Shown here: one piece after another, positions 9,596 through 23,901 of the stretch
Layout: each line of letters opens with the position of its first letter
How positions within the stretch are numbered: the first letter of the stretch is position 1
Assembly (NCBI GenBank): GCA_048940645.1
Contig: JBHLOI010000048.1
Coordinates: 1 to 23,975, forward strand
Source of the DNA: Promethearchaeota archaeon
Lineage (GTDB): Archaea; Asgardarchaeota; Lokiarchaeia; Sigyniarchaeales; SOKP01
Length of the DNA: 23,975 nt
Direction: 5' to 3'
Program-made: the position numbers and the translations under genes
The notes under the pieces: model-generated
What the model saw: only the letters and a program-made list of their open reading frames with translations
Database searches by the model: none
Told to the model about the DNA's origin: nothing

Positions 9596-10011
9596 TTTAG
9601 AGATCACTTCCAAATTGACTTCTATAATAATTACGGTAGAAATGTATATAATCTTATATTTAAATTAATAAGTTATTGTGATGATAGCTTTTCAAATATA
9701 GAGAAAATACAAAATTTACCTTTTATCAACTTAATTTAGAGATATAATGTAAAATAAACCACTTTAAACAGTGTAATATGTAGATAACACCCAAATTAAG
9801 TAACTCACTATTAGCATTATAAGATTCCTTAGAATTACTCCATTAATCCTCCTAACTTTCATATTTTTTTATTTAAATATATTAAAAACCTGATTCAAGA
9901 GAATAATATCCTTATAAATATATAGTTCGCGAAATAATTATCTTGAATTTAAAGTTAAACTAGTACGTTAAAATTTTATTTTAAATAGGTAAAGTAAAAC
10001 TTGAGAATTTA

Positions 10012-10017
10012 TTTATA
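10012..10017 (+). promoter_or_regulatory. Putative TATA box of the DUF35/thiolase-like operon
   Basis: TTTATA about 60 nt upstream of ATG 10076, preceded by a purine-rich stretch (GAGAA) and followed by three AATCAT direct repeats. Confidence 0.35.
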
Positions 10018-10075
10018 CTACTAATCATAATATTAATCATTATAAAATCATAAAAGAAATTTTGGAAAAGAAGTT

Positions 10076-10537
10076 ATGAACGAAAAAGTTATAATTGGTA
10101 ACAAGGGTTTAATTCGGGCAGAATTCAATTTCTGGGTGGGTCGATATCTTGATAAATTTTATGATAATCTCGAAAATAAGAAAATCGTTGGAAATAAATG
10201 CCCAAAATGCGGCGATGTGTTTGTACCTCCAAGAAAAGTATGTGGAAAGTGTAATGGAGTTATTACTTTTGAAGAAAATTGGGTTAATTTACCTGAAACG
10301 GGAACATTACTGAATTATACAATAACACCATATAAAGTAAATGATAGAGCATTTAGGAAAGTGAAAAAGCCTCAAAAAATTGGGATGATTCAAATTGATG
10401 GAAGCGATACTGCTATTGTTTACCGACTATTAGACTTAGAACCAAATGAGATCAAATTAGGGATGAAATTAAAGGTTGAATGGGAGGAAAAAACAAAAGG
10501 AGACCCTTCAGATATAAAGGGTTTCACAAAGCAATAG
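10076..10537 (+). CDS. DUF35 protein (Zn-ribbon plus OB-fold, ChsH2-like acyl-CoA-binding scaffold)
   Basis: KIVGNKCPKCG.VFVPPRKVCGKC, WV.L.ETGTL..YT, IQIDGSDT, IKLGMKLKVEW. Confidence 0.93.
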   Translation: MNEKVIIGNKGLIRAEFNFWVGRYLDKFYDNLENKKIVGNKCPKCGDVFVPPRKVCGKCNGVITFEENWVNLPETGTLLNYTITPYKVNDRAFRKVKKPQKIGMIQIDGSDTAIVYRLLDLEPNEIKLGMKLKVEWEEKTKGDPSDIKGFTKQ

Positions 10538-10543
10538 AGGGGG

Positions 10544-11695
10544 TTGAAATCAATGCAGAAAGTTGGTATTGTTGGATATAATCAAGTAAAATTATACTCA
10601 GATGCTAATTATGGTAGATATGAGATGATTTTTGAGGCTGTACGAGGTGCTCTAGACAGCGTAGGTCTGAAAAAGAAAGATATATCGACTGTAGTTTCGG
10701 CTACTAATGACTATTATGATGGTCGAACAATCTCAAATGCATTAACTGTAGAGCCTGGAGGAGGATACTTAACTGATGAATCCAAGGTTGAAATGGACGG
10801 TGCTCATGCTGTATTATATGGATTAATGCGGATTTTATCCGGTAATCATAGTTTGGCAGTTGTATGGGGTGGGAGTATGGCATCCTGTTTTCCATACCAT
10901 ACTGCTCGATTATATGAAACAGATCCTATATGGGAGCGTCCATTAGCTTATGTAAATGATATAAGTTCTTCCGGCTTTCAGATGAGAGCTTATATGGAAA
11001 AGTTTGGGGTAAGTGCTGAAGATATTGCTAAAATCGCTGTTAAAAATAGAAAAAACGCTGCAAAAAACCAATTAGCTTTAGTAGAAGCTCAAAATCCAAA
11101 CTTAACAATTAAAGATGTTTTAGAATCTGAGATTTATGCTGATCCGGTAACAGAACTAATGGTAGCTCAACCTTGCGATGGTGTGGCAGCTTTATTATTA
11201 GCACCAGAAAAGCAAGCACTAAAGATCACAGATAATCCAGTTTGGATTATAGGTGTGGGTTATAATCAAGAAACTTATTATCTTGGAGAAAGAGACTTAT
11301 CTATTAGTAAATCCATGGAATTAGCAAGTAAAATGGCTTTTAATGCCGCTGGAGTCAAAGATCCTATAAATGAAATTGACGTGGCTGAGTTATTTGAAGC
11401 TTATGCTCACGAAGAATTAATACTTAGCGAAGCTTTAGGATTTGCTGAAAAAGGTAAAGGAACAACTTTAAACTCTGAAATTGATGGTGATATGCCCATT
11501 AATCCGTCTGGAGGCGCTTTGGGGGGAAATCCACCTTGTGCAACTGGTTTAATAAGAATTATTGAGGCTGTTAAACAACTAAGAGGGGAGGCAAGTGGCT
11601 ATCAGGTCAAAGGTGCTAAAAAAGCTATTGCCTCGGGTCAAATAGGTTTATGCGCCCAAAACAATATATTGTATGTATTAGAAGGAGGTAATTAA
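10544..11695 (+). CDS. Thiolase-fold (SCP-x type) protein, Ltp4-like putative aldolase subunit
   Basis: DYYDGR...ESKVEMDGAHA, where the thiolase nucleophile Cys position is replaced, resembling the ESHVEMDAAWA segment I recall from mycobacterial Ltp4. Also KNRKNA, DGVAAL, INPSGG. Confidence 0.82.
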   Translation: MKSMQKVGIVGYNQVKLYSDANYGRYEMIFEAVRGALDSVGLKKKDISTVVSATNDYYDGRTISNALTVEPGGGYLTDESKVEMDGAHAVLYGLMRILSGNHSLAVVWGGSMASCFPYHTARLYETDPIWERPLAYVNDISSSGFQMRAYMEKFGVSAEDIAKIAVKNRKNAAKNQLALVEAQNPNLTIKDVLESEIYADPVTELMVAQPCDGVAALLLAPEKQALKITDNPVWIIGVGYNQETYYLGERDLSISKSMELASKMAFNAAGVKDPINEIDVAELFEAYAHEELILSEALGFAEKGKGTTLNSEIDGDMPINPSGGALGGNPPCATGLIRIIEAVKQLRGEASGYQVKGAKKAIASGQIGLCAQNNILYVLEGGN

Positions 11696-11697
11696 AA

Positions 11698-12945
11698 ATG
11701 GGAAGACAAGTTTGTGTTGCGGGTGCAGGTTTTAGTGAGCATGCATCAAAGCGTTCAGATGTAAACATGCCGGAACTAGTAAATGAAGCAATAAAAGATT
11801 GCCTAAAAAGAGTTCCAGGTCTTGATATTAAAGATATTGATGCTTTTGTAAATGGGAATATGCCTGCGTTTGAAGGATCAAATATTCCTGAATTATGGAT
11901 GACAGATTGGATGGGTGCCAGAAATAAACCATTACTGCGAGTCACGACAGGAGGTACTACAGGTGGTTCGGTAGCTATTGCTGGATATTACTCTGTTGCT
12001 GCTGGGATACCCGGTATTGATACTGTGTTAGCTATCGCTTTCGAACAGCAATCTCAAGGTGATACAAGTGTTGGACTTGCTAGTGTAGCTTATGGAGAAA
12101 TATCAGTCATGAACTCACTAGGTATTCCTTATGATCAATTAACACTCCTTTTATCCGGTGGTGCTGCTATAGGAATTGCTTCTTATCAAGCTACTAATTA
12201 TATGCGTAAAAGTAAGATTACTGAAGAAGATTTAGCAAGAGTTGTTGTTCAAAATAGACATAATGCAGCAAAAACATGGTGGGCTCATCTTAAAATGCCC
12301 GATCTTACAATTGAGGATGTTTTAGATACACCCTATATTTCATATCCTTTAAGATATGGAATGGTTTGTCCAGCATCCGATGGAGCATGCGCAATGCTAT
12401 TTACAACCGAAGAAAAAGCGAAAGATATATGTGACATTCCCGTTTATGTAAATGGAGTAGGTAGTGTAGCAAATGAGACAGCTCTCATTGGCTATGGGGG
12501 GAGTGGATCTGGTCAATTAGACCTTTCTGAACAATTAGGAGCTCAAAGAACTTCCGAAATAGCTTTTAAACAAGCAGGAATTCTTTTTCCAAGAAAACAA
12601 ATTGATTATGCCGAAGTTTATTCACCATTTCCTAACCAAGAACTTATGTGGGTCGAAAAATTGGGTCTATTTGAAGAAAATACGGCGCCAAAAATGTATA
12701 AAACTGGAGTTACTGCTTTAAATGGCGAATTACCAATCAACTGTTCGGGAGGAGTTAATTCTACAAATGCTATAGGAGCCTCAGCATTAGAAAGACCTGC
12801 TGAAGCGGCTTTACAAATTATGGGAACGGCTAGCAATCAAGTCCCTAAAACTGTACATACATCATTGGGACATGGATGGGGAGGTTATGTCAATTTGGTA
12901 ACAATGATGGTTATGGCTGATGAACCAGCGAGAAAATTTAAATAA
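11698..12945 (+). CDS. Thiolase-fold (SCP-x type) protein, Ltp3-like putative aldolase subunit
   Basis: KRSDVNMPELV.EAI, FEG..IPELWM.D.MGA.NKPLLRV.TGG..GGS, AFEQQS, WAHL.MPDLT, CPASDGACA, AEVYSPF, SGGV.STNAIGAS, GHGWGG; co-linear with actinobacterial Ltp3 as I recall it. GGAGGT SD. Confidence 0.85.
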   Translation: MGRQVCVAGAGFSEHASKRSDVNMPELVNEAIKDCLKRVPGLDIKDIDAFVNGNMPAFEGSNIPELWMTDWMGARNKPLLRVTTGGTTGGSVAIAGYYSVAAGIPGIDTVLAIAFEQQSQGDTSVGLASVAYGEISVMNSLGIPYDQLTLLLSGGAAIGIASYQATNYMRKSKITEEDLARVVVQNRHNAAKTWWAHLKMPDLTIEDVLDTPYISYPLRYGMVCPASDGACAMLFTTEEKAKDICDIPVYVNGVGSVANETALIGYGGSGSGQLDLSEQLGAQRTSEIAFKQAGILFPRKQIDYAEVYSPFPNQELMWVEKLGLFEENTAPKMYKTGVTALNGELPINCSGGVNSTNAIGASALERPAEAALQIMGTASNQVPKTVHTSLGHGWGGYVNLVTMMVMADEPARKFK

Positions 12946-12964
12946 AAAAAGGAGGTAGTAAAAA

Positions 12965-13495
12965 TTGTCTAAAAGAACGTTAAGGAAATCAATGGACTAT
13001 ATTAAAAAAGAATATGTTAGAACAAGGACTATGCCAGCAAGCTGGTATTTATCCAGTTATAAATTTAAATTTAATATTACTCATATGACACCATTTCTTG
13101 ATAAATTAAAGCAGAAAAAGTTGGTTGGGTTGCAGTGCTCAAGTTGTAATAGAATTTATTTTCCACCACGACAAATTTGTGGCAAGTGCCTTGTGAAACC
13201 TGATAGGTGGGTTGATTTGCGAGAAACTGGGAGAGTTGCCTCTTTCACTGCGACTTATTTAAAAGATCCAGAAACTGGCGAAGTTATAGAACGACCTATT
13301 GTGTGTGCCCAATTAGATGGAGCAGATACTTCTTACCCAGCACAATTGGATCCTGATGTTGAATTTAAGGATACATACATTGGTATGCCCATAAAGGTTC
13401 ATTGGGCAGATGATATTAAGGGTGGACTAATGGATATCGAATATTATGATCCTATTGAAGACAACGCTAAAGATTTACAATCTAAAGAAGATTAA
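12965..13495 (+). CDS. DUF35 protein (Zn-ribbon plus OB-fold)
   Basis: KLVGLQCSSC.RIYFPPRQICGKC, WVDL.ETG.V.SFT, QLDGADT, IGMPIKVHW; GGAGGT SD before the TTG start. Confidence 0.93.
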   Translation: MSKRTLRKSMDYIKKEYVRTRTMPASWYLSSYKFKFNITHMTPFLDKLKQKKLVGLQCSSCNRIYFPPRQICGKCLVKPDRWVDLRETGRVASFTATYLKDPETGEVIERPIVCAQLDGADTSYPAQLDPDVEFKDTYIGMPIKVHWADDIKGGLMDIEYYDPIEDNAKDLQSKED

Positions 13496-13517
13496 TAAAA
13501 AAATTTTACATTTTTAT
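13496..13517. terminator. Probable bidirectional oligo-T terminator between convergent genes
   Basis: 22-nt gap carrying an A-tract then a T-tract (TAAAAAAATTTTACATTTTTA), giving a T-run on each strand just after each stop codon. Confidence 0.4.
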
Positions 13518-18062: not shown

Positions 18063-18287
18063 AGCATTAAATTCTTATTGGATGATTTACTTTTATAAAT
18101 TGAAATATTAAAACTTTATCCTACTATTAATAATTTTGATACTTTTAATCTTATAGTAAAGATTTTTTCAAACTTTTATCCACTATGTAGAATCAACAAC
18201 ATTTATATAGAATAAACAATATATAAATTTAAATAATACAATAGTATTCTCTATATTTTAAAATAAAAATGTAAGGTGAAAATCAAT

Positions 18288-18815
18288 ATGGTTGAAAAAA
18301 AGTATGCTGGATTTTCAGAAGAACACTTACGCAGAATTGCTTTAAAGAAGGTACAATTTAGAATGTCAATTAAAATACACACAGGAATATTTATTGTAGT
18401 TAATATTTTAATGCTAATTCTAAATTTATTTTTTAGTCCAAATAATCTTTGGGTTATTTTTCCATTCTTTGGATGGTTAATTGGACTTGCTGAGCATATA
18501 GCTACTTATGTTGTTTACGCAAGGGGAATATACCCTGGAGCCAAGAGAGGAGTGCTTTTTCATTCTGTTGCTTATATTTTTGTTATTTTATATCTCTTTA
18601 TTATAAACATACTTGTAACTCCTGATTTTTACTGGGTAATATTTCCAACAATATTCTGGGGTACAGCATTAATTATTCATTTAATAGCATATTTCATATA
18701 TCGTCGACCTTTCATTGATAGGGAGGGCACCTTAAAATCTAAAACCGATCGTGCCGTAGAGAAAGAGTTAGAGAAGATGAAAAAGAAAATGAATCAGAAG
18801 GGTGTATTAAGTTAG
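18288..18815 (+). CDS. Membrane protein with two tandem 2TM domains
   Basis: Two copies of H...(F/Y)..V...L..(L/I)N....P...WVIFP...W...L..H, then a C-terminal AVEKELEKMKK helix typical of 2TM proteins. ATG 18288 follows an AAGGTGA SD; alternative GTG at 18276. Confidence 0.8.
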   Translation: MVEKKYAGFSEEHLRRIALKKVQFRMSIKIHTGIFIVVNILMLILNLFFSPNNLWVIFPFFGWLIGLAEHIATYVVYARGIYPGAKRGVLFHSVAYIFVILYLFIINILVTPDFYWVIFPTIFWGTALIIHLIAYFIYRRPFIDREGTLKSKTDRAVEKELEKMKKKMNQKGVLS

Positions 18816-19462
18816 TGTGGCTTGGTAAATTCCTAAACCTTGAAGAAGATCTGGATGAATTAAAAAATAAACTAAAACAAGGTATTTTAGAAAATATTAA
18901 AAGGAATAAAATTACACCTCTTGAATTTACCATTATTGAAACGATCTTCAATAGCAAGGAATTATCTGGATATGATCTTATATTAAATTTGAATAGACAT
19001 TTCGCTGGTACTTGGGAAGCTCAATCTGGCACAATTTATCCGATGTTATCAAAATTAAAAAAGGAAAATTTTTTAAAATTTAGACCTGTAAAAAGTCCAT
19101 TAGGTCCAATTAGAAAAGTTTATTCCTTAACAGAAGCAGGAGAAGAGATTCTCAAGGTGAAAGTTAATAAAAACTTTGAAGACCAACTAAGATTTATTGA
19201 GAATTTCCTTGTAGAACTCTCTTCAATTTACATCCAGTCATACCCTGACAACGAAAGAGATCAAAGGATGGAAGAGGTAAAAAATAGTTTGAAAGAAATT
19301 TTTGAAAATGCTGTAAAAAAAATACCCCCCACCCTTAACTTTAAAGCAAGGTGTTCAGAGTGTGGAGCTGAAATTAATAGACAAGCATTATTTTGCCCGA
19401 TATGTGGAGCTGCCATAACTTCTAAAGATAATGATAATAATAAAGCAAAATCTACTGAATAA
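18815..19462 (+). CDS. PadR-family transcriptional regulator with C-terminal zinc ribbon
   Basis: LSGYDLI..L......W....GTIYPMLSKL...........RKVYSLTEAG PadR winged helix; C-terminal CSECG...FCPICG. Start overlaps the upstream stop by 1 nt (TAGTG). Confidence 0.9.
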   Translation: MWLGKFLNLEEDLDELKNKLKQGILENIKRNKITPLEFTIIETIFNSKELSGYDLILNLNRHFAGTWEAQSGTIYPMLSKLKKENFLKFRPVKSPLGPIRKVYSLTEAGEEILKVKVNKNFEDQLRFIENFLVELSSIYIQSYPDNERDQRMEEVKNSLKEIFENAVKKIPPTLNFKARCSECGAEINRQALFCPICGAAITSKDNDNNKAKSTE

Positions 19463-19566: not shown

Positions 19567-20136
19567 TTAAGTTTTAACTATTGCATTAATATAGAAAGAT
19601 GCTATGATAAGTGAACCTCCTGTAATAATATATATTAATCTCCAATAATATAAACCCAAAAAGTTAAAGATGACGAAAGAAAAAATCAGGAACCCAAGAA
19701 AAACAACTAGAGAGATTATTACATTAGTTCTATTTTCTTGTTTAGGGAATATATTATTGAGAGAGAACTCGTACATAGTTGGAATTGAAAACCCACAGAA
19801 AGGACCACTTACGATTGTTAAGATGATATAGTGTTCAGATCTCCAAGTAATTGAGAAAAAGATCAGTAAGAATGCCGAAATAAGAAGGGTTACCATAAAG
19901 ATCAATGTACTTTGGATTTTCTCCTTGAATTTAAAACTTACTAAAAAAACTACGATAAAAAGTATAAAACTAATTGTACTATAATCTGCTATAAGAAGAT
20001 TACTGAGATACCAAGAATAATAATATTCTGGTATAAGTGGCAATATAAATGCTGTAATCATGTAAAAAGGCAATAATAATACACTGAATACTGAAATAAT
20101 ATTTATGGTATGTTTTGAAATATTTTTAATATTCAT
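19567..20136 (-). CDS. Hypothetical 6-TM membrane protein resembling one half of an MFS transporter
   Basis: Six hydrophobic segments; SGPFCGFSIP and GLYYWRLIYIITG resemble MFS TM4 and the 'WR' entry to TM6. Motif A is not recognisable. Confidence 0.6.
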   Translation of the reverse strand: MNIKNISKHTINIISVFSVLLLPFYMITAFILPLIPEYYYSWYLSNLLIADYSTISFILFIVVFLVSFKFKEKIQSTLIFMVTLLISAFLLIFFSITWRSEHYIILTIVSGPFCGFSIPTMYEFSLNNIFPKQENRTNVIISLVVFLGFLIFSFVIFNFLGLYYWRLIYIITGGSLIIASFYINAIVKT

Positions 20137-20236: not shown

Positions 20237-22318
20237 ATGTCTAAGCTATTCAAATTAAGGCTTGCTTTTATTCTATTAATAGTGGGTATAGGTTTAATAC
20301 CAACTGCCTTTCTAGCTAACGGGTATTTTCGAGATCAAGTCCCCGCCAATGCATCAGAAACACTTTTAATTCTTAAAAATGAAGGAATTTCATATGTAGA
20401 GGAAGAATTTAAAGGATTAGGCATTCCAGAAATTCTTCCCCAGATGATGGAGGATGAAATATCTGATCTTGAAGAAGATATTGCAAAAATAAAACCAATT
20501 CCTGAATTTCTGATATTTGCTAAAAATGAAGTTATTAATGGGTTTCCTCGAATAATTAATGGTTCAACTGCTGCAGAAGAAATAGATGGTGTAATATCTT
20601 TAGTTCAAGTACAGAACCTTACAAGTACAGCTGATGCTAGGAATCAATTCTTTAATAATTATGAATTTCAAGATAATTATTCTACTCCGTTTGAAGGTGT
20701 TTCTGAGCGTATGATGGGATCAGTTAGTCTTAATTATTCTGGTTTTGCTCGAGCAAGATTGCTTGATGGTTATACATATAATGGTACAGCATATCCAGGT
20801 TTAATTACTGATCTTAATTTTGGAAGAGGACTTAATAATTGGCTTGATTTCTATTCTTATGCTAAATCAGACATCGGAACGAACAGATCATTAATTCAAT
20901 TAGTTTATAATTGTTCCTGGTCATCAGGTCAGCTCCAGAATTTATCAGCTTATATAAAAACATATATGTGGAATGTCTTAGTATTTAACTATTATGATTC
21001 AAAAGGTATTGCTTTCCCTGCTGAATATGAATTTTACGCTCAATGGGCAAATTTAAGCTTTTACAATAACCCAATTAATTTAAATCTTTTTAGTGATATA
21101 ATCAATCGAAGTATAACTGGTATAGAAGCAGCATATCCCAGTGCAACATATATACGATCTTCAACAGCAATAGATTTATGGGATTCGACTAATTCTTCTT
21201 CCTTTGTTAATGATACCGGGTTTTTAAAATGGGAATTAGCGAGGGGTACTAGTAATGAATCACTGGATATGCAAAATGAATTAGGTAGTACTTTTAATAT
21301 ATCTCAAACTCAAGTAGATCAAATTATTGCATGGTTATTTACCCCAGTAAAACAGAACCTTATTCCAAACTTAATGAAATTTCCTGAACCTTATGGATAT
21401 GGTATGAATATAACACAGTATTCAGAAGTTTTGTTTTATGAACAGTGGGCAAATGGGACTGTTGTTACAGATGGAATTGAATTACAACAAGGATATAAGG
21501 GTATTGAAGCATGCATCGTCTATAACAATACTTCCATGGAAATATTGTATATCGATAAAACTAATATTTCATTAGAAACAACTCAAGATATGTTTGATGA
21601 AACTAATAGTTCATCATTTATAAACAGGAATGGAATTTTGAAGTGGATCGAAGCCGCAGAAGGAGACGTGATAGTTCAAAATGAATTGGTCTCAACATTC
21701 AATTTAAGTATAGAGCAAATAAATTTAATAAATAATTGGTTATTCTCCGACTTTAGATATAATATAATACCACATCTTGTAAACCGCTACCCTATAACAA
21801 CATGTAAAGAGTATAGGAATTCATTGGACGAATTTGCAGAGGTTGAATTTTACCGCCAATGGGCAAATGGATCGCTATTTACTGAAGGAATTGATATTGC
21901 ACCTTTCTTATCATTAGGGTCTCCAATTAAAAATTTTGAGATTGGAATAAATCTGAATTGTTTCCAATCAAGACTTTTATGGGATGAAGATAACTACTAC
22001 TCATTTGTTAATCGAAAAGGAATATCAATTTGGTACGAAGCTTTGGAATCTTCTAATCATTACAACGAACTTAGGTCATCTAATACTAATTTTAACTTAA
22101 CCGATAGTGATATGAGTACTATCTTAGATTGGTTAATTTTTATTAGAGACAATTTGACCCTTCAATATACACAATTAAAATATAATTTACCAGCAAATTA
22201 TTATATACTAGCTGATTGGTATTTTATGGGAATAATGATAGGTGCTATTGGATTTTCGAGCTTTGGTTTAATTCTTGGAGTGATTTTGTTAGTTTTCCAA
22301 AAAAAAGATGAAAGATAA
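20237..22318 (+). CDS. Large surface glycoprotein with N- and C-terminal TM segments and ~135-aa 'FYxQWAN' repeats
   Basis: Hydrophobic segments at about aa 9-27 and aa 662-687, a short charged tail (QKKDER), about 25 N-x-S/T sequons by manual count, and three clear internal repeats. Confidence 0.85.
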   Translation: MSKLFKLRLAFILLIVGIGLIPTAFLANGYFRDQVPANASETLLILKNEGISYVEEEFKGLGIPEILPQMMEDEISDLEEDIAKIKPIPEFLIFAKNEVINGFPRIINGSTAAEEIDGVISLVQVQNLTSTADARNQFFNNYEFQDNYSTPFEGVSERMMGSVSLNYSGFARARLLDGYTYNGTAYPGLITDLNFGRGLNNWLDFYSYAKSDIGTNRSLIQLVYNCSWSSGQLQNLSAYIKTYMWNVLVFNYYDSKGIAFPAEYEFYAQWANLSFYNNPINLNLFSDIINRSITGIEAAYPSATYIRSSTAIDLWDSTNSSSFVNDTGFLKWELARGTSNESLDMQNELGSTFNISQTQVDQIIAWLFTPVKQNLIPNLMKFPEPYGYGMNITQYSEVLFYEQWANGTVVTDGIELQQGYKGIEACIVYNNTSMEILYIDKTNISLETTQDMFDETNSSSFINRNGILKWIEAAEGDVIVQNELVSTFNLSIEQINLINNWLFSDFRYNIIPHLVNRYPITTCKEYRNSLDEFAEVEFYRQWANGSLFTEGIDIAPFLSLGSPIKNFEIGINLNCFQSRLLWDEDNYYSFVNRKGISIWYEALESSNHYNELRSSNTNFNLTDSDMSTILDWLIFIRDNLTLQYTQLKYNLPANYYILADWYFMGIMIGAIGFSSFGLILGVILLVFQKKDER
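21020..22140 (+). repeat. Three protein-level tandem repeats within the 693-aa gene
   Basis: QWAN codons start at 21041, 21443 and 21857 (spacing 402 and 414 nt = 134 and 138 aa). Each unit also has (L/M)(W/F)D..N..SF(V/I)N..G...W, NEL...FN(I/L)(S/T) and I..WL. Confidence 0.9.
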
Positions 22319-22461: not shown

Positions 22462-23727
22462 TTACTCAGGAAATATTCCATATTTTTTAAAGACCTTAAT
22501 CAATTCTTCATTTGCTAAAAGTTTCATAATATCTGACATTGGAGCTAAGACTTCATCTTTTTTTAATTGTCTTTTGTTACTAATTCTTCCTTCTTTTACT
22601 TCAAAAGCATTTTGCGACCAACTATATTCGTCATTAAAGGTAAACCAAATATCTTTATATGCTCCTTCCTGTCCACCATCTCCTGCTAGTGGTTTTTCTT
22701 CGATAGGAACTTCTGGATCTTGTAGATAACACCAATCCAAAATGACCCATTCTAAATTTCTCTCAGATTCAGGTCTATCAGCCAGATATATACAATAAGC
22801 ATGACCTCCAAGTTCAGAATCAGAGGGGGCGAATACGGGGTCAGCCACAACCTGAGCAGCACAAACTTTAACTCGCCATGAGGGGATTCCTGCATTAATC
22901 AATAAACTCGCTATAAGAATAGCACCATCTTCACAGTCACCTATCTCAGATTGAATTGATTCAAAAGGAAATTGCCAAAATTCAGGGCAATCAACCGATT
23001 CATCATCATATTTATATTTGAGGAAATTACAAACAAAATTTTGTATAGCATGGGCAGTTTCGTTTGGGGTATCTCTCCTTAGACCAACTTGGGTAATGAC
23101 ATGCCATAAGATGGCATCATCCTTTTTGATAAAAGTCTTTACATCCGCATCAATTTGTTTTCTATAGGATTCACCTCTTAACGCCCTCCCCGTGTAAATT
23201 ATTGGTGCTGTTTCCCATTTATTATTCCAATAATCTGGACCATAATCTCCAAAATCACCTTTAAATTCTTCGATAGGTATATATTCAATGGGTTTAATAG
23301 GTGTTGGGGCAGGTTCTTTTTTAGGTTTTGGCTTTTTAGGCGCACCTTCTAGATCTTTAGCCTTCTCAATCCAGTTCTCTAAATCTTTCAGAGCTGGAAC
23401 CTTACTTAGAAGTTTTGGTTTTTCGTTGCTTAATTGCTTTAGTTTTTCTAAAGTACTTTTAGCATTCCTATAAGCAAATTCTTTTACTGAATCAATTCCG
23501 ATTAAATTTAAACCATTTGCGATTATCGGATCAACCCCTTCAATCCGCATTAAGTCAGCGTGTTCTTGCCAGGTATCAAGTGTTTTTACTGAAACTCCAA
23601 TACTTCTTGCTAATTTCTTGATCTGATAAGGTGTTAATGAGAGTAAATCTTCGATTTCCCTAATCCCAGCTTTTTCCAAGAGTTTTGCATGCTTATCTTC
23701 TAATCCTACAATATCAATCAATTTCAT
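22462..23727 (-). CDS. DUF4332 (tandem helix-hairpin-helix) domain fused to a transglutaminase-like cysteine-protease domain
   Basis: N-terminal MKLIDIVGL...AGI..IEDLL...W..HADLMRIEGV...G.DSVKE.A.RN...P.....NWIEKAK matches DUF4332. A Pro/Lys linker follows, then EFWQFP.E....GDCEDGAIL...GGHAY...ILDW giving a Cys-His-Asp triad. ATG 23727 preferred over 23739. Confidence 0.87.
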   Translation of the reverse strand: MKLIDIVGLEDKHAKLLEKAGIREIEDLLSLTPYQIKKLARSIGVSVKTLDTWQEHADLMRIEGVDPIIANGLNLIGIDSVKEFAYRNAKSTLEKLKQLSNEKPKLLSKVPALKDLENWIEKAKDLEGAPKKPKPKKEPAPTPIKPIEYIPIEEFKGDFGDYGPDYWNNKWETAPIIYTGRALRGESYRKQIDADVKTFIKKDDAILWHVITQVGLRRDTPNETAHAIQNFVCNFLKYKYDDESVDCPEFWQFPFESIQSEIGDCEDGAILIASLLINAGIPSWRVKVCAAQVVADPVFAPSDSELGGHAYCIYLADRPESERNLEWVILDWCYLQDPEVPIEEKPLAGDGGQEGAYKDIWFTFNDEYSWSQNAFEVKEGRISNKRQLKKDEVLAPMSDIMKLLANEELIKVFKKYGIFPE

Positions 23728-23901
23728 TATTATTACCAAGAAATTTAAATAAAATTAATTTATAGAAAAAATTAATTAGTAAAAATATTAATTGCTTATT
23801 TTAAAAGATTTTACTAATTAACACACTAAAAAATTGGATTAAAAAATAATATATAGAAGCAATAAAAGAAAACTTTAGTTTTTCTTTGAAAAAGATACAA
23901 A

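Follow-up and report, generated by a model that had tools for sequence, protein, structure and literature searches.

A helical repeat module links a putative two-anchor surface glycoprotein family of Asgard archaea to CD36-domain proteins

Receptors of the CD36 family, including CD36, SR-BI and LIMP-2 (PF01130), are hairpins in topology, with short cytoplasmic tails and a large ectodomain that is N-glycosylated, and CD36/SR-B receptors function in lipid uptake, pathogen recognition and lysosomal sorting. To our knowledge, the family has been regarded as eukaryote-only, and no mention of CD36 in archaea was found in the searchable literature. The apex is the ligand-contacting part of animal class B scavenger receptors, and the apex expansions of protist SR-Bs have been described as lineage-specific and said to "have independent origins" (Genome Biol Evol 2023, PMC10715195); Dictyostelium LmpA-C and Tetrahymena SR-B_2 are among the proteins depicted there with an expanded apex. 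As for the surface of Asgard cells, cultured Lokiarchaeum displays small unordered surface densities without an ordered S-layer (PMC9834061), and an S-layer protein was not detected in P. syntrophicum (PMC11284389). The gene described here, P0001, is encoded by a Promethearchaeota archaeon of the order Sigyniarchaeales (assembly GCA_048940645.1, contig JBHLOI010000048.1), and "the window" refers to the whole stretch of 23,975 nucleotides that was analysed. Its features are as follows.

20237..22318, + strand: whole gene P0001, a single ORF of 693 aa, stop codon included, encoding a putative two-anchor surface glycoprotein
20246..20347, + strand: N-terminal membrane helix and juxtamembrane motif, aa ~4-37 (KD hydropathy; AF2 helix 3-37)
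20348..21010, + strand: N-terminal helical region, aa 38-258, with stalk helices 39-57, 63-83 and 88-126 followed by a helical domain (AF2)
20825..21004, + strand: possible degenerate partial repeat copy, aa ~197-256, three helices (weak hhalign support)
21011..21412, + strand: QWAN repeat 1, aa 259-392 (repeat-versus-repeat matches)
21413..21826, + strand: QWAN repeat 2, aa 393-530 (repeat-versus-repeat matches; own-genome profile search E 1.3e-36)
21827..22216, + strand: QWAN repeat 3, aa 531-660 (repeat-versus-repeat matches)
22220..22303, + strand: C-terminal membrane helix, aa ~662-689 (KD hydropathy; AF2 helix 655-692), followed by the 4-residue tail KDER

The only hydrophobic stretches of P0001 (KD > 1.6) lie at aa ~1-31 and ~662-689, and the protein contains 25 N-x-S/T sequons against 8.5 +/- 2.6 expected (2000 shuffles, maximum 18). 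This excess is a family trait, with a median of 18 sequons against 7 expected in 43 homologs, and the Asn of QWAN-x-S/T in repeats 1 and 2 lies in a sequon in 100% of family sequences; the conservation of sequons across the family, this Asn included, suggests an outward-facing ectodomain. The AF2 model (pLDDT 90.8, pTM 0.78) contains 32 helices, with strands of only 3-4 residues in an almost all-helical ectodomain, and packs the N-terminal helix (3-37) against the C-terminal helix. An earlier note, made from the DNA sequence alone, had described membrane segments at both termini of a sequon-rich ectodomain in which the canonical CD36 beta-barrel was not evident; hydropathy and sequon counts bear out the first point, and the barrel-less helical model agrees with the second. 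Hydropathy, sequons and model describe a CD36-type topology, consisting of a helix at each terminus, short tails and a large sequon-rich loop, with the glycosylation and orientation of this loop being predictions.

The repeats are ~135 aa in length and carry the FYxQWAN motif at aa 266, 400 and 538. Compared with one another (259-392, 393-530 and 531-660), they match with pairwise E-values of 4.8e-24, 7.9e-11 and 2.2e-14 at 33-41% identity, and as family profiles with E-values of 2e-46 to 1e-32, so the three repeats proposed by the earlier note are significant by both comparisons. Its "possible degenerate fourth copy" is matched in register but weakly: aa ~197-251 align, in the same register, with the three final helices of each repeat at profile-profile E-values of 0.03-0.09 (hhalign), and in the same register with the repeat of a CD36 protein at a weak E-value of 0.58, while BLAST comparison gave no signal. 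The QWAN domain, about 125-135 aa long, comprises five helices as well as a long loop, and four of its residues (Trp, Glu, Trp, Trp) are invariant; repeat 1 folded alone yields these 5 helices and long loop with high confidence (AF2, pLDDT 93.9, pTM 0.87).

Searches of P0001 against Pfam and NCBIfam returned no family at E<=10, and hmmscan found no match to Pfam CD36 (PF01130) even at this threshold. The 43 QWAN family members likewise had no Pfam CD36 match, only scattered weak matches to membrane-segment or unrelated families; the same library recovered a CD36 protein of the window's own genome at E 2e-89. PDB sequence searches with P0001 and with the repeat profile as queries gave nothing meaningful, the best Foldseek hit of the whole model in the PDB had an E-value of 0.07 at a TM-score of 0.08, and a wide fold search (VIA) with the whole model matched the terminal helix hairpin only. 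The ESM Atlas entry for P0001 is a poor model (pLDDT 0.43) whose neighbours are meaningless. QWAN is a new helical domain that has neither a Pfam entry nor a fold relative in the PDB, and the profile search matched no widespread prokaryotic domain; the earlier note, too, had not recognised the repeat as a standard prokaryotic domain. By sequence and predicted structure, P0001 itself lies outside the CD36 family, and the possible lipid capture suggested by the earlier note has no structural basis here, given an all-helical model that lacks a barrel and no Pfam CD36 match at E<=10.

A search of 5.8 billion proteins returned 151 homologs of P0001, of which all named ones are from Asgard MAGs and are annotated "hypothetical". 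The repeat profile matched 293 clusters among 1.84 billion proteins, the named ones belonging only to Asgard archaea or to protists (four oomycete genera, an amoebozoan and a ciliate), the "Asgard plus protists" range that had been put forward as supportive. A single bacterial occurrence, on a contig of a "Nanopelagicaceae" MAG, was rejected; the contig is syntenic with Asgard contigs, has 34% GC and is probably misbinned. Stand-alone QWAN proteins have, like P0001, at least two tandem modules between the N-terminal helical region and the C-terminal anchor. They are found only in the window's own order, in 82/134 species genomes of its own family (f1), 5/14 of f3 and 1/4 of f4, with several paralogs per genome, whereas genomes of other Asgard families that contain the module have a single copy of it and encode CD36 as well. 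An HMM of the N-terminal region finds only P0001 (E 9e-93) and a paralog on contig C74 (1e-39) in the window's genome. Stand-alone relatives contain 2-6 modules, P0001 having three, and their N-terminal helical region measures 259, 287.5, 317 and 331 aa for 3, 4, 5 and 6 repeats, with its first ~70 aa duplicated in relatives with 5-6 repeats. This scaling of length with repeat number, the secondary structure and the hairpin matches suggest that the ectodomain folds back on itself.

The named QWAN matches also include CD36-domain proteins of Thraustotheca, Pythium, Aphanomyces, Phytophthora, Cavostelium and Muranothrix, and of Hodarchaeales and Heimdall-group MAGs. The resemblance to inserts in protist CD36 proteins that the earlier note suggested is thereby confirmed for oomycetes, an amoebozoan and a ciliate. 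In protist and some Asgard CD36 proteins the module lies inside a split Pfam CD36 domain (model positions ~133-155), and this split point is the apex position. CD36-domain genes were detected in 28/400 Asgard species genomes, including 19/134 of the window's family, and 11/11 Asgard CD36 ORFs tested carry the QWAN module. The window's own genome encodes one such protein (P0282, C56:410-2848; Pfam CD36 E 2e-89), with a QWAN module at E 1.6e-14. An alignment of the stand-alone family matches that of the Asgard CD36 proteins at 98.3% probability (hhalign, E 2e-14). At the level of sequence, then, the QWAN module links a large Asgard family of unannotated surface proteins to genuine CD36-domain genes.

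A second link is located in the N-terminal membrane segment, the most conserved region of P0001 among close orthologs (90%), with a "G.GLIPTG"-type motif in which G17, G19 and P22 are conserved and G17 is invariant. An HMM of this 42-aa segment, searched against 5839 ORFs of the same genome, found only P0001, its paralog and the CD36-family protein, the last at E 1.3e-9 against 0.18 for the next best ORF. Similarity to the CD36 group of the window's order ranges from E 1e-5 to 1e-13; no eukaryotic CD36 member was matched, and the homology is with Asgard members only. The conservation of the segment, its invariant G17 and its homology to the N-terminal segment of Asgard CD36 suggest that the N-terminal helix is an uncleaved anchor.

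We consider it reasonably likely that P0001 is a barrel-less, hairpin-anchored glycoprotein derived from an Asgard CD36-like receptor, serving as an outward binding or adhesion module and not conducting lipids. Both termini would be cytoplasmic, with tails of at most 8 aa and about 620 aa facing outward; a sensor or transducer role was rejected because the tails are so short. The chain would leave the membrane as the uncleaved N-terminal helix, continue through the long stalk helices into the helical domain, and return through the three QWAN domains, arranged in tandem, to a second membrane helix packed on the first. Its glycosylated tip modules would be displayed outside the cell and may bind external partners such as other cells, particles or polymers, or P0001 may instead be a surface exposed to viruses. 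On this reading P0001 would also belong to the non-S-layer coat of the cell. Within its syntenic block no gene has diverged more than P0001, and close orthologs differ most in repeat 1 (56% identity), which points to an exposed, fast-evolving protein. The gene has no conserved operon partner, and synteny is retained only among close kin.

It is possible, though rather unlikely, that P0001 is only a structural coat protein, a glycosylated block that has no specific ligand and helps to build the unordered, non-S-layer envelope of Loki-type Asgard cells. Such a role would suit a sequon-rich, membrane-anchored family with several paralogs per genome and the surfaces reported for Lokiarchaeum and P. 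syntrophicum (PMC9834061, PMC11284389). P0001 matched no S-layer domain or anchor (e.g., PGF-CTERM) in Pfam or NCBIfam and its model is all-helical, however S-layer proteins are diverse and a coat role is compatible with this result. Against a purely structural role, the protein occurs in only 82 of the 134 species genomes of the window's family and is missing from most Asgard families, so it is not a universal envelope component; in addition, the module is homologous to a receptor tip, divergence is rapid and fastest in repeat 1, and no lattice-type fold was found.

It is quite unlikely that P0001 acts as a partner or co-receptor of the CD36 protein of its own genome, capturing a ligand (possibly lipid or lipoprotein-like) for the CD36 barrel or forming mixed oligomers through the N-terminal helices. 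Both proteins are encoded in one genome and have the N-terminal membrane segment in common, and in genomes G208 and G213 a 2-repeat QWAN gene lies next to a CD36 gene in divergent orientation. However, this arrangement was seen in only two genomes out of about 20, the window's own 3-repeat gene is not adjacent to a CD36 gene, and most genomes with stand-alone QWAN proteins have no detected CD36 (in the window's family, CD36 in 19/134 and QWAN in 82/134). Less probable still is that P0001 is secreted in the ordinary way, its N-terminal signal peptide cleaved off and the C-terminal helix its sole anchor, with its CD36 likeness due to chance and its repeat a shuffled module. The basic n-region and hydrophobic core of the N-terminus would fit a signal peptide, and the C-terminal helix has no significant similarity to that of CD36 proteins (E 0.059), but the hydrophobic stretch is long (about 20-23 aa), the segment is the best conserved of the protein with Gly and Pro invariant or nearly so, its similarity to the CD36 paralog is specific, and in the model it pairs with the C-terminal helix. 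Finally, a true CD36-type lipid receptor or transporter with a barrel diverged past detection, which would draw on topology and the shared module only, is exceedingly improbable, as there is no Pfam CD36 match at E<=10, the confident all-helical model leaves no space for a ~300-aa barrel, and the stretch from TM1 to repeat 1 is helical, with no relation to the N-terminal part of CD36.

Derivation of P0001 from a CD36-like receptor would be a lineage-specific event in which the barrel was lost and the tip module multiplied. This status is suggested by the restriction of stand-alone QWAN proteins to the window's own order, the single module accompanied by CD36 elsewhere, and the divergent CD36/QWAN neighbours. 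In the QWAN-domain tree (100 rows, 120 columns), resolution was too poor to place stand-alone modules before or after CD36-embedded ones, so descent from a CD36 gene is a proposal, and the QWAN module may instead have come first and been inserted into CD36 later. In an unrooted CD36 tree, Asgard and module-bearing protist proteins group together with support of 97/89, with their mutual order left open, and the "eukaryotic-signature" status suggested in the earlier note, a matter of vertical descent versus transfer, is therefore unsupported. We put forward only tentatively, and with some doubt, that the QWAN tip and CD36 were already together in the Asgard ancestor of eukaryotes, the module-bearing protist CD36 proteins being survivors and the three-helix apex of animals a reduced state. 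If so, stand-alone QWAN proteins would represent archaeal trials of the ancestral ligand-binding head and would offer a directly testable way to learn how the surface of the archaeal host recognized partners or took up material before there were eukaryotes.

The CD36 family extends into Asgard archaea, with a module common to the apex expansions of protists. On sequence similarity, this argues for shared ancestry of the apex expansions in at least these module-bearing lineages, against the independent origins published previously (PMC10715195). The question of vertical descent or transfer can now be tested, and whichever holds is relevant to the surface of the archaeal cell that took part in eukaryogenesis. 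The QWAN family is also a candidate for some of the complex surface proteins of cultured Lokiarchaeia, the molecular identities of which are unknown (PMC9834061).

Among described proteins, animal CD36, SR-BI and LIMP-2 resemble P0001 in hairpin topology, short tails and a large loop, which in P0001 is putatively glycosylated. They differ in having an asymmetric beta-barrel, a lipid tunnel and a small three-helix apex, and no similarity of sequence or fold to P0001 was detected by Pfam, PDB sequence and fold searches. The protist SR-B/CD36 proteins (Phytophthora infestans, Pythium, Aphanomyces, Cavostelium and Muranothrix) are closer, with the same two-anchor topology and a homologous module at the apex (profile E 1e-14 to 1e-52), however they retain the CD36 barrel; the oomycete copies number 5-9 and are mostly partial (profile positions ~30-112). 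Closest are the Asgard CD36 proteins with an apex insert (P0282 and P0177 of Hodarchaeales), which are unpublished and annotated "hypothetical", and which have in common with P0001 the N-terminal segment motif, QWAN modules, two-anchor topology, a sequon-rich ectodomain and host lineage. In these proteins one or two QWAN modules are flanked by the split Pfam CD36 domain (E 1e-52 to 1e-89), while P0001 has, in place of the CD36 part, a family-specific helical N-terminal region and three tandem modules.

P0001 is encoded by a single open frame with coordinates identical to those of the feature described in the earlier note, within a window of approximately 30% G+C. The gene and its repeats are as follows.

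20237-22318, + strand, P0001 gene (693 aa)
P0001 aa 259-392, repeat 1
P0001 aa 393-530, repeat 2
P0001 aa 531-660, repeat 3

The three tandem FYxQWAN repeats proposed earlier, with motifs at aa 266, 400 and 538, match one another in pairwise BLAST (E-values 4.8e-24, 7.9e-11 and 2.2e-14) and when compared as family profiles (2e-46 to 1e-32). The suggestion of a degenerate fourth copy holds weakly and in part: aa ~197-251 alone aligns with the final three repeat helices, in constant register, at E-values of 0.03-0.09 between family profiles. The hydrophobic segment at each terminus and the approximately 25 sequons were borne out, as Kyte-Doolittle hydropathy exceeds 1.6 only at aa ~1-31 and ~662-689, and 25 N-x-S/T sequons were counted versus 8.5 ± 2.6 expected (maximum 18 in 2000 composition-preserving shuffles). 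Across the P0001 family the median is 18 sequons versus 7 expected, with the QWAN-motif Asn forming a sequon in 100% of family sequences at repeats 1 and 2; P0001 is presumably N-glycosylated.

The AlphaFold2 model of P0001, built from a 43-sequence alignment (pLDDT 90.8, pTM 0.78), contains 32 helices and few strands, each of 3-4 residues, and therefore no beta-barrel. A single repeat folded alone with the 74-sequence repeat alignment (pLDDT 93.9, pTM 0.87) forms five helices and a 35-residue loop. No match to the P0001 model was found in the PDB using Foldseek, and a Foldseek-independent search returned only two-helix hairpins spanning model residues 1 to 693, which places helix 3-37 and helix 655-692 side by side in the model, a pairing that would be expected for a membrane hairpin. 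Sequence searches of Pfam, NCBIfam and the PDB with P0001 also gave no match. P0001 is thus a two-anchor, sequon-rich, all-helical protein carrying three copies of an uncatalogued domain, likely with both termini inside, an uncleaved first helix and the shape of a fold-back rod. In a small, related sample, the first repeat lies a median of 259, 287.5, 317 and 331 aa from the start in proteins with 3, 4, 5 and 6 repeats, respectively. Longer forms with 5-6 repeats (P0059, P0072, P0075 and P0079) have a duplication of the initial ~70 residues of the N-region, indicating that the stalk lengthens together with module number; this scaling is compatible with stalk helices running beside the module stack.

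A profile of the repeat searched against 1.84 billion representative proteins matched 293 clusters at E ≤ 1e-3, of which 163 reach E ≤ 1e-10. These include oomycete proteins of 2000-2700 aa from Thraustotheca, Pythium and Aphanomyces, one Phytophthora infestans protein, one protein each from the amoebozoan Cavostelium and the ciliate Muranothrix, and proteins of 900-1650 aa from Hodarchaeales, Heimdall-group and Kariarchaeaceae MAGs. Every such protein tested carries the Pfam CD36 domain (E-values 1e-16 to 2e-89), and wherever both halves were detected this domain is split at model positions ~133-155 with the QWAN module between them. A 2023 survey of eukaryotic SR-B proteins (PMC10715195) locates expansions of this kind at the apex, which interacts with ligands, and terms them lineage-specific, of independent origins, with archaea unmentioned. 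The P0001 domain shares homology with the inserts at the apex of one CD36 subfamily, which occurs in Asgard archaea and in several protists, and the likeness to protist CD36 inserts suggested in the earlier note has real support.

A Pfam CD36 search of the assembly containing the window identified one gene, on another contig.

C56:410-2848 (locus L069:112-2550), + strand, CD36-family gene, 813-aa frame

Its product matches CD36 model positions 4-162 and 133-462 (whole protein E 2e-89); an insert of roughly 270 aa, which bears one QWAN module (E 1.6e-14), splits the domain at positions ~133-162. The G+C content of this contig, 29.7%, is consistent with that of the genome (29.9 ± 1.2%), and the gene is a genuine CD36-family member of the same archaeal genome. 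Of 400 Asgard species genomes, 28 have a detected CD36 gene, versus none of 14 control genomes; the module is present in each of the 11 Asgard CD36 frames tested. Searches of the non-subscription literature for CD36, LIMP-2, SCARB2 or PF01130 with archaea found no paper, and no CD36 entry was found in the supplements of a 2023 Heimdallarchaeia paper.

P0001 has 151 homologs in a set of 5.8 billion proteins, all named ones being hypothetical proteins of Asgard (Promethearchaeota) MAGs. Pattern scanning across 185,579 species genomes gave 65 loci, 64 of them Asgard. The remaining one, contig DATKTW010000076.1 (34% G+C), is labelled as a Nanopelagicaceae bacterium MAG, however it is syntenic with Asgard loci and is thus probably an Asgard contig misbinned into a bacterial MAG; a gene flanking its QWAN-family gene is 82% identical to the counterpart in an Asgard locus. 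Stand-alone QWAN proteins occur only in the window's own order (82 of 134, 5 of 14 and 1 of 4 genomes in families f1, f3 and f4), while other Asgard families carry one module per genome, solely in CD36-bearing genomes. Repeat number among P0001 relatives ranges from 2 to 6, with tandem paralogs in some genomes; three Asgard MAGs have head-to-tail 2-repeat paralogs of ~550-567 aa each. The genome containing the window encodes a further paralog, with the N-terminal anchor, N-region and C-terminal anchor as in P0001.

C74:4186-5871 (locus L002:1348-3033), - strand, 2-repeat P0001 paralog, about 561 aa

Identity among close orthologs is highest in the N-terminal membrane segment (90%), followed by repeat 3 (80%), repeat 2 (69%) and repeat 1 (56%, the lowest). 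In four syntenic relatives, no gene of the block has diverged more than that of P0001 (73, 66, 68 and 42% identity), its block neighbours having 77-94% identity in three and 45-80% in the fourth. The family is confined to one Asgard order and is fast-evolving.

A 42-residue N-terminal HMM of the P0001 family, searched against the full set of 5839 ORFs in the genome, retrieved P0001 (9e-21), the C74 paralog (2e-14) and the C56 CD36 protein (1.3e-9), the next ORF scoring 0.18. It also matches most CD36 proteins of the same order (1e-5 to 1e-13), Heimdall-group ones more weakly, and gave no match to eukaryotic CD36-type proteins. The N-terminal anchor is thus common to P0001 and Asgard CD36 proteins. 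In two genomes, a CD36 gene on the - strand (~853 aa) lies next to a stand-alone QWAN gene with two repeats on the + strand (~570 aa); the two are divergent, with frames <50 bp apart.

L081, G208:C27:5000-11500, divergent CD36/QWAN pair
L082, G213:C246:3500-10000, divergent CD36/QWAN pair

This arrangement looks like the remnant of an inverted duplication or a sign of common regulation. The shared anchor, the restriction to one order, the linkage of the module to CD36 elsewhere and the divergent pairs favour the view that the stand-alone family descends from an Asgard CD36-like gene that lost its barrel and multiplied its tip module; resolution in the module tree is too low to establish the direction between stand-alone and CD36-embedded forms.

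In an exploratory tree of the C-terminal CD36 half (318 columns; oomycete proteins were left out, with <200 columns aligned), all Asgard CD36 and module-bearing protist proteins form one group (support 97/89) whose inner order is not separated. Its module-bearing protist members are the proteins of Muranothrix and Cavostelium, a further EukProt sequence and unnamed metagenomic sequences; the canonical CD36 proteins of protists and animals fall outside. Being unrooted and thinly sampled, the tree cannot choose between ancient shared ancestry and transfer.

The neighbours of the P0001 gene are conserved in close kin only and give no functional hint. The set comprises DUF4332/HhH/transglutaminase-like, half-size MFS-like, PadR with zinc ribbon, 2TM, PAP2, MFS, nitroreductase and alpha-amylase proteins. 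Individual genes of the window other than that of P0001 are listed below.

11698-12945, + strand, thiolase-like protein
12965-13495, + strand, ChsH2/DUF35-type zinc-ribbon and OB protein
18276-19462, + strand, 2TM-domain membrane protein (179 aa), then PadR-type regulator fused to a C-terminal zinc ribbon (215 aa)
19567-20136, - strand, half-size transporter-like membrane protein (189 aa; first half of the MFS_1 profile only, below cut-off)
22462-23739, - strand, N-terminal DUF4332 and helix-hairpin-helix with weak transglutaminase-like core (E 1e-3), 425 aa

The first two lie in a + strand gene run (~10000-13500) where G+C rises to 34-38%. The 2TM stop overlaps the PadR-zinc ribbon start at 18815 and the pair, conserved in syntenic relatives, is probably a two-gene unit. 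The half-size transporter-like protein is fast-evolving (45% identity in L008), and the 425-aa protein, 78-93% identical in syntenic relatives, is far more conserved than the adjoining QWAN gene.

The absence of a barrel, and the ligand-contacting position of the module in CD36 relatives, suggest a role for P0001 in surface binding or adhesion, rather than lipid conduction. The main alternative is a purely structural coat. Asgard CD36 proteins share the QWAN module and N-terminal anchor with P0001, whereas the N-region (aa 38-258) is specific to the P0001 family, and the C-terminal helix is likewise not common to them; the CD36 proteins of oomycetes, Cavostelium and Muranothrix carry a module homologous to the P0001 repeat inside their own split CD36 domain.
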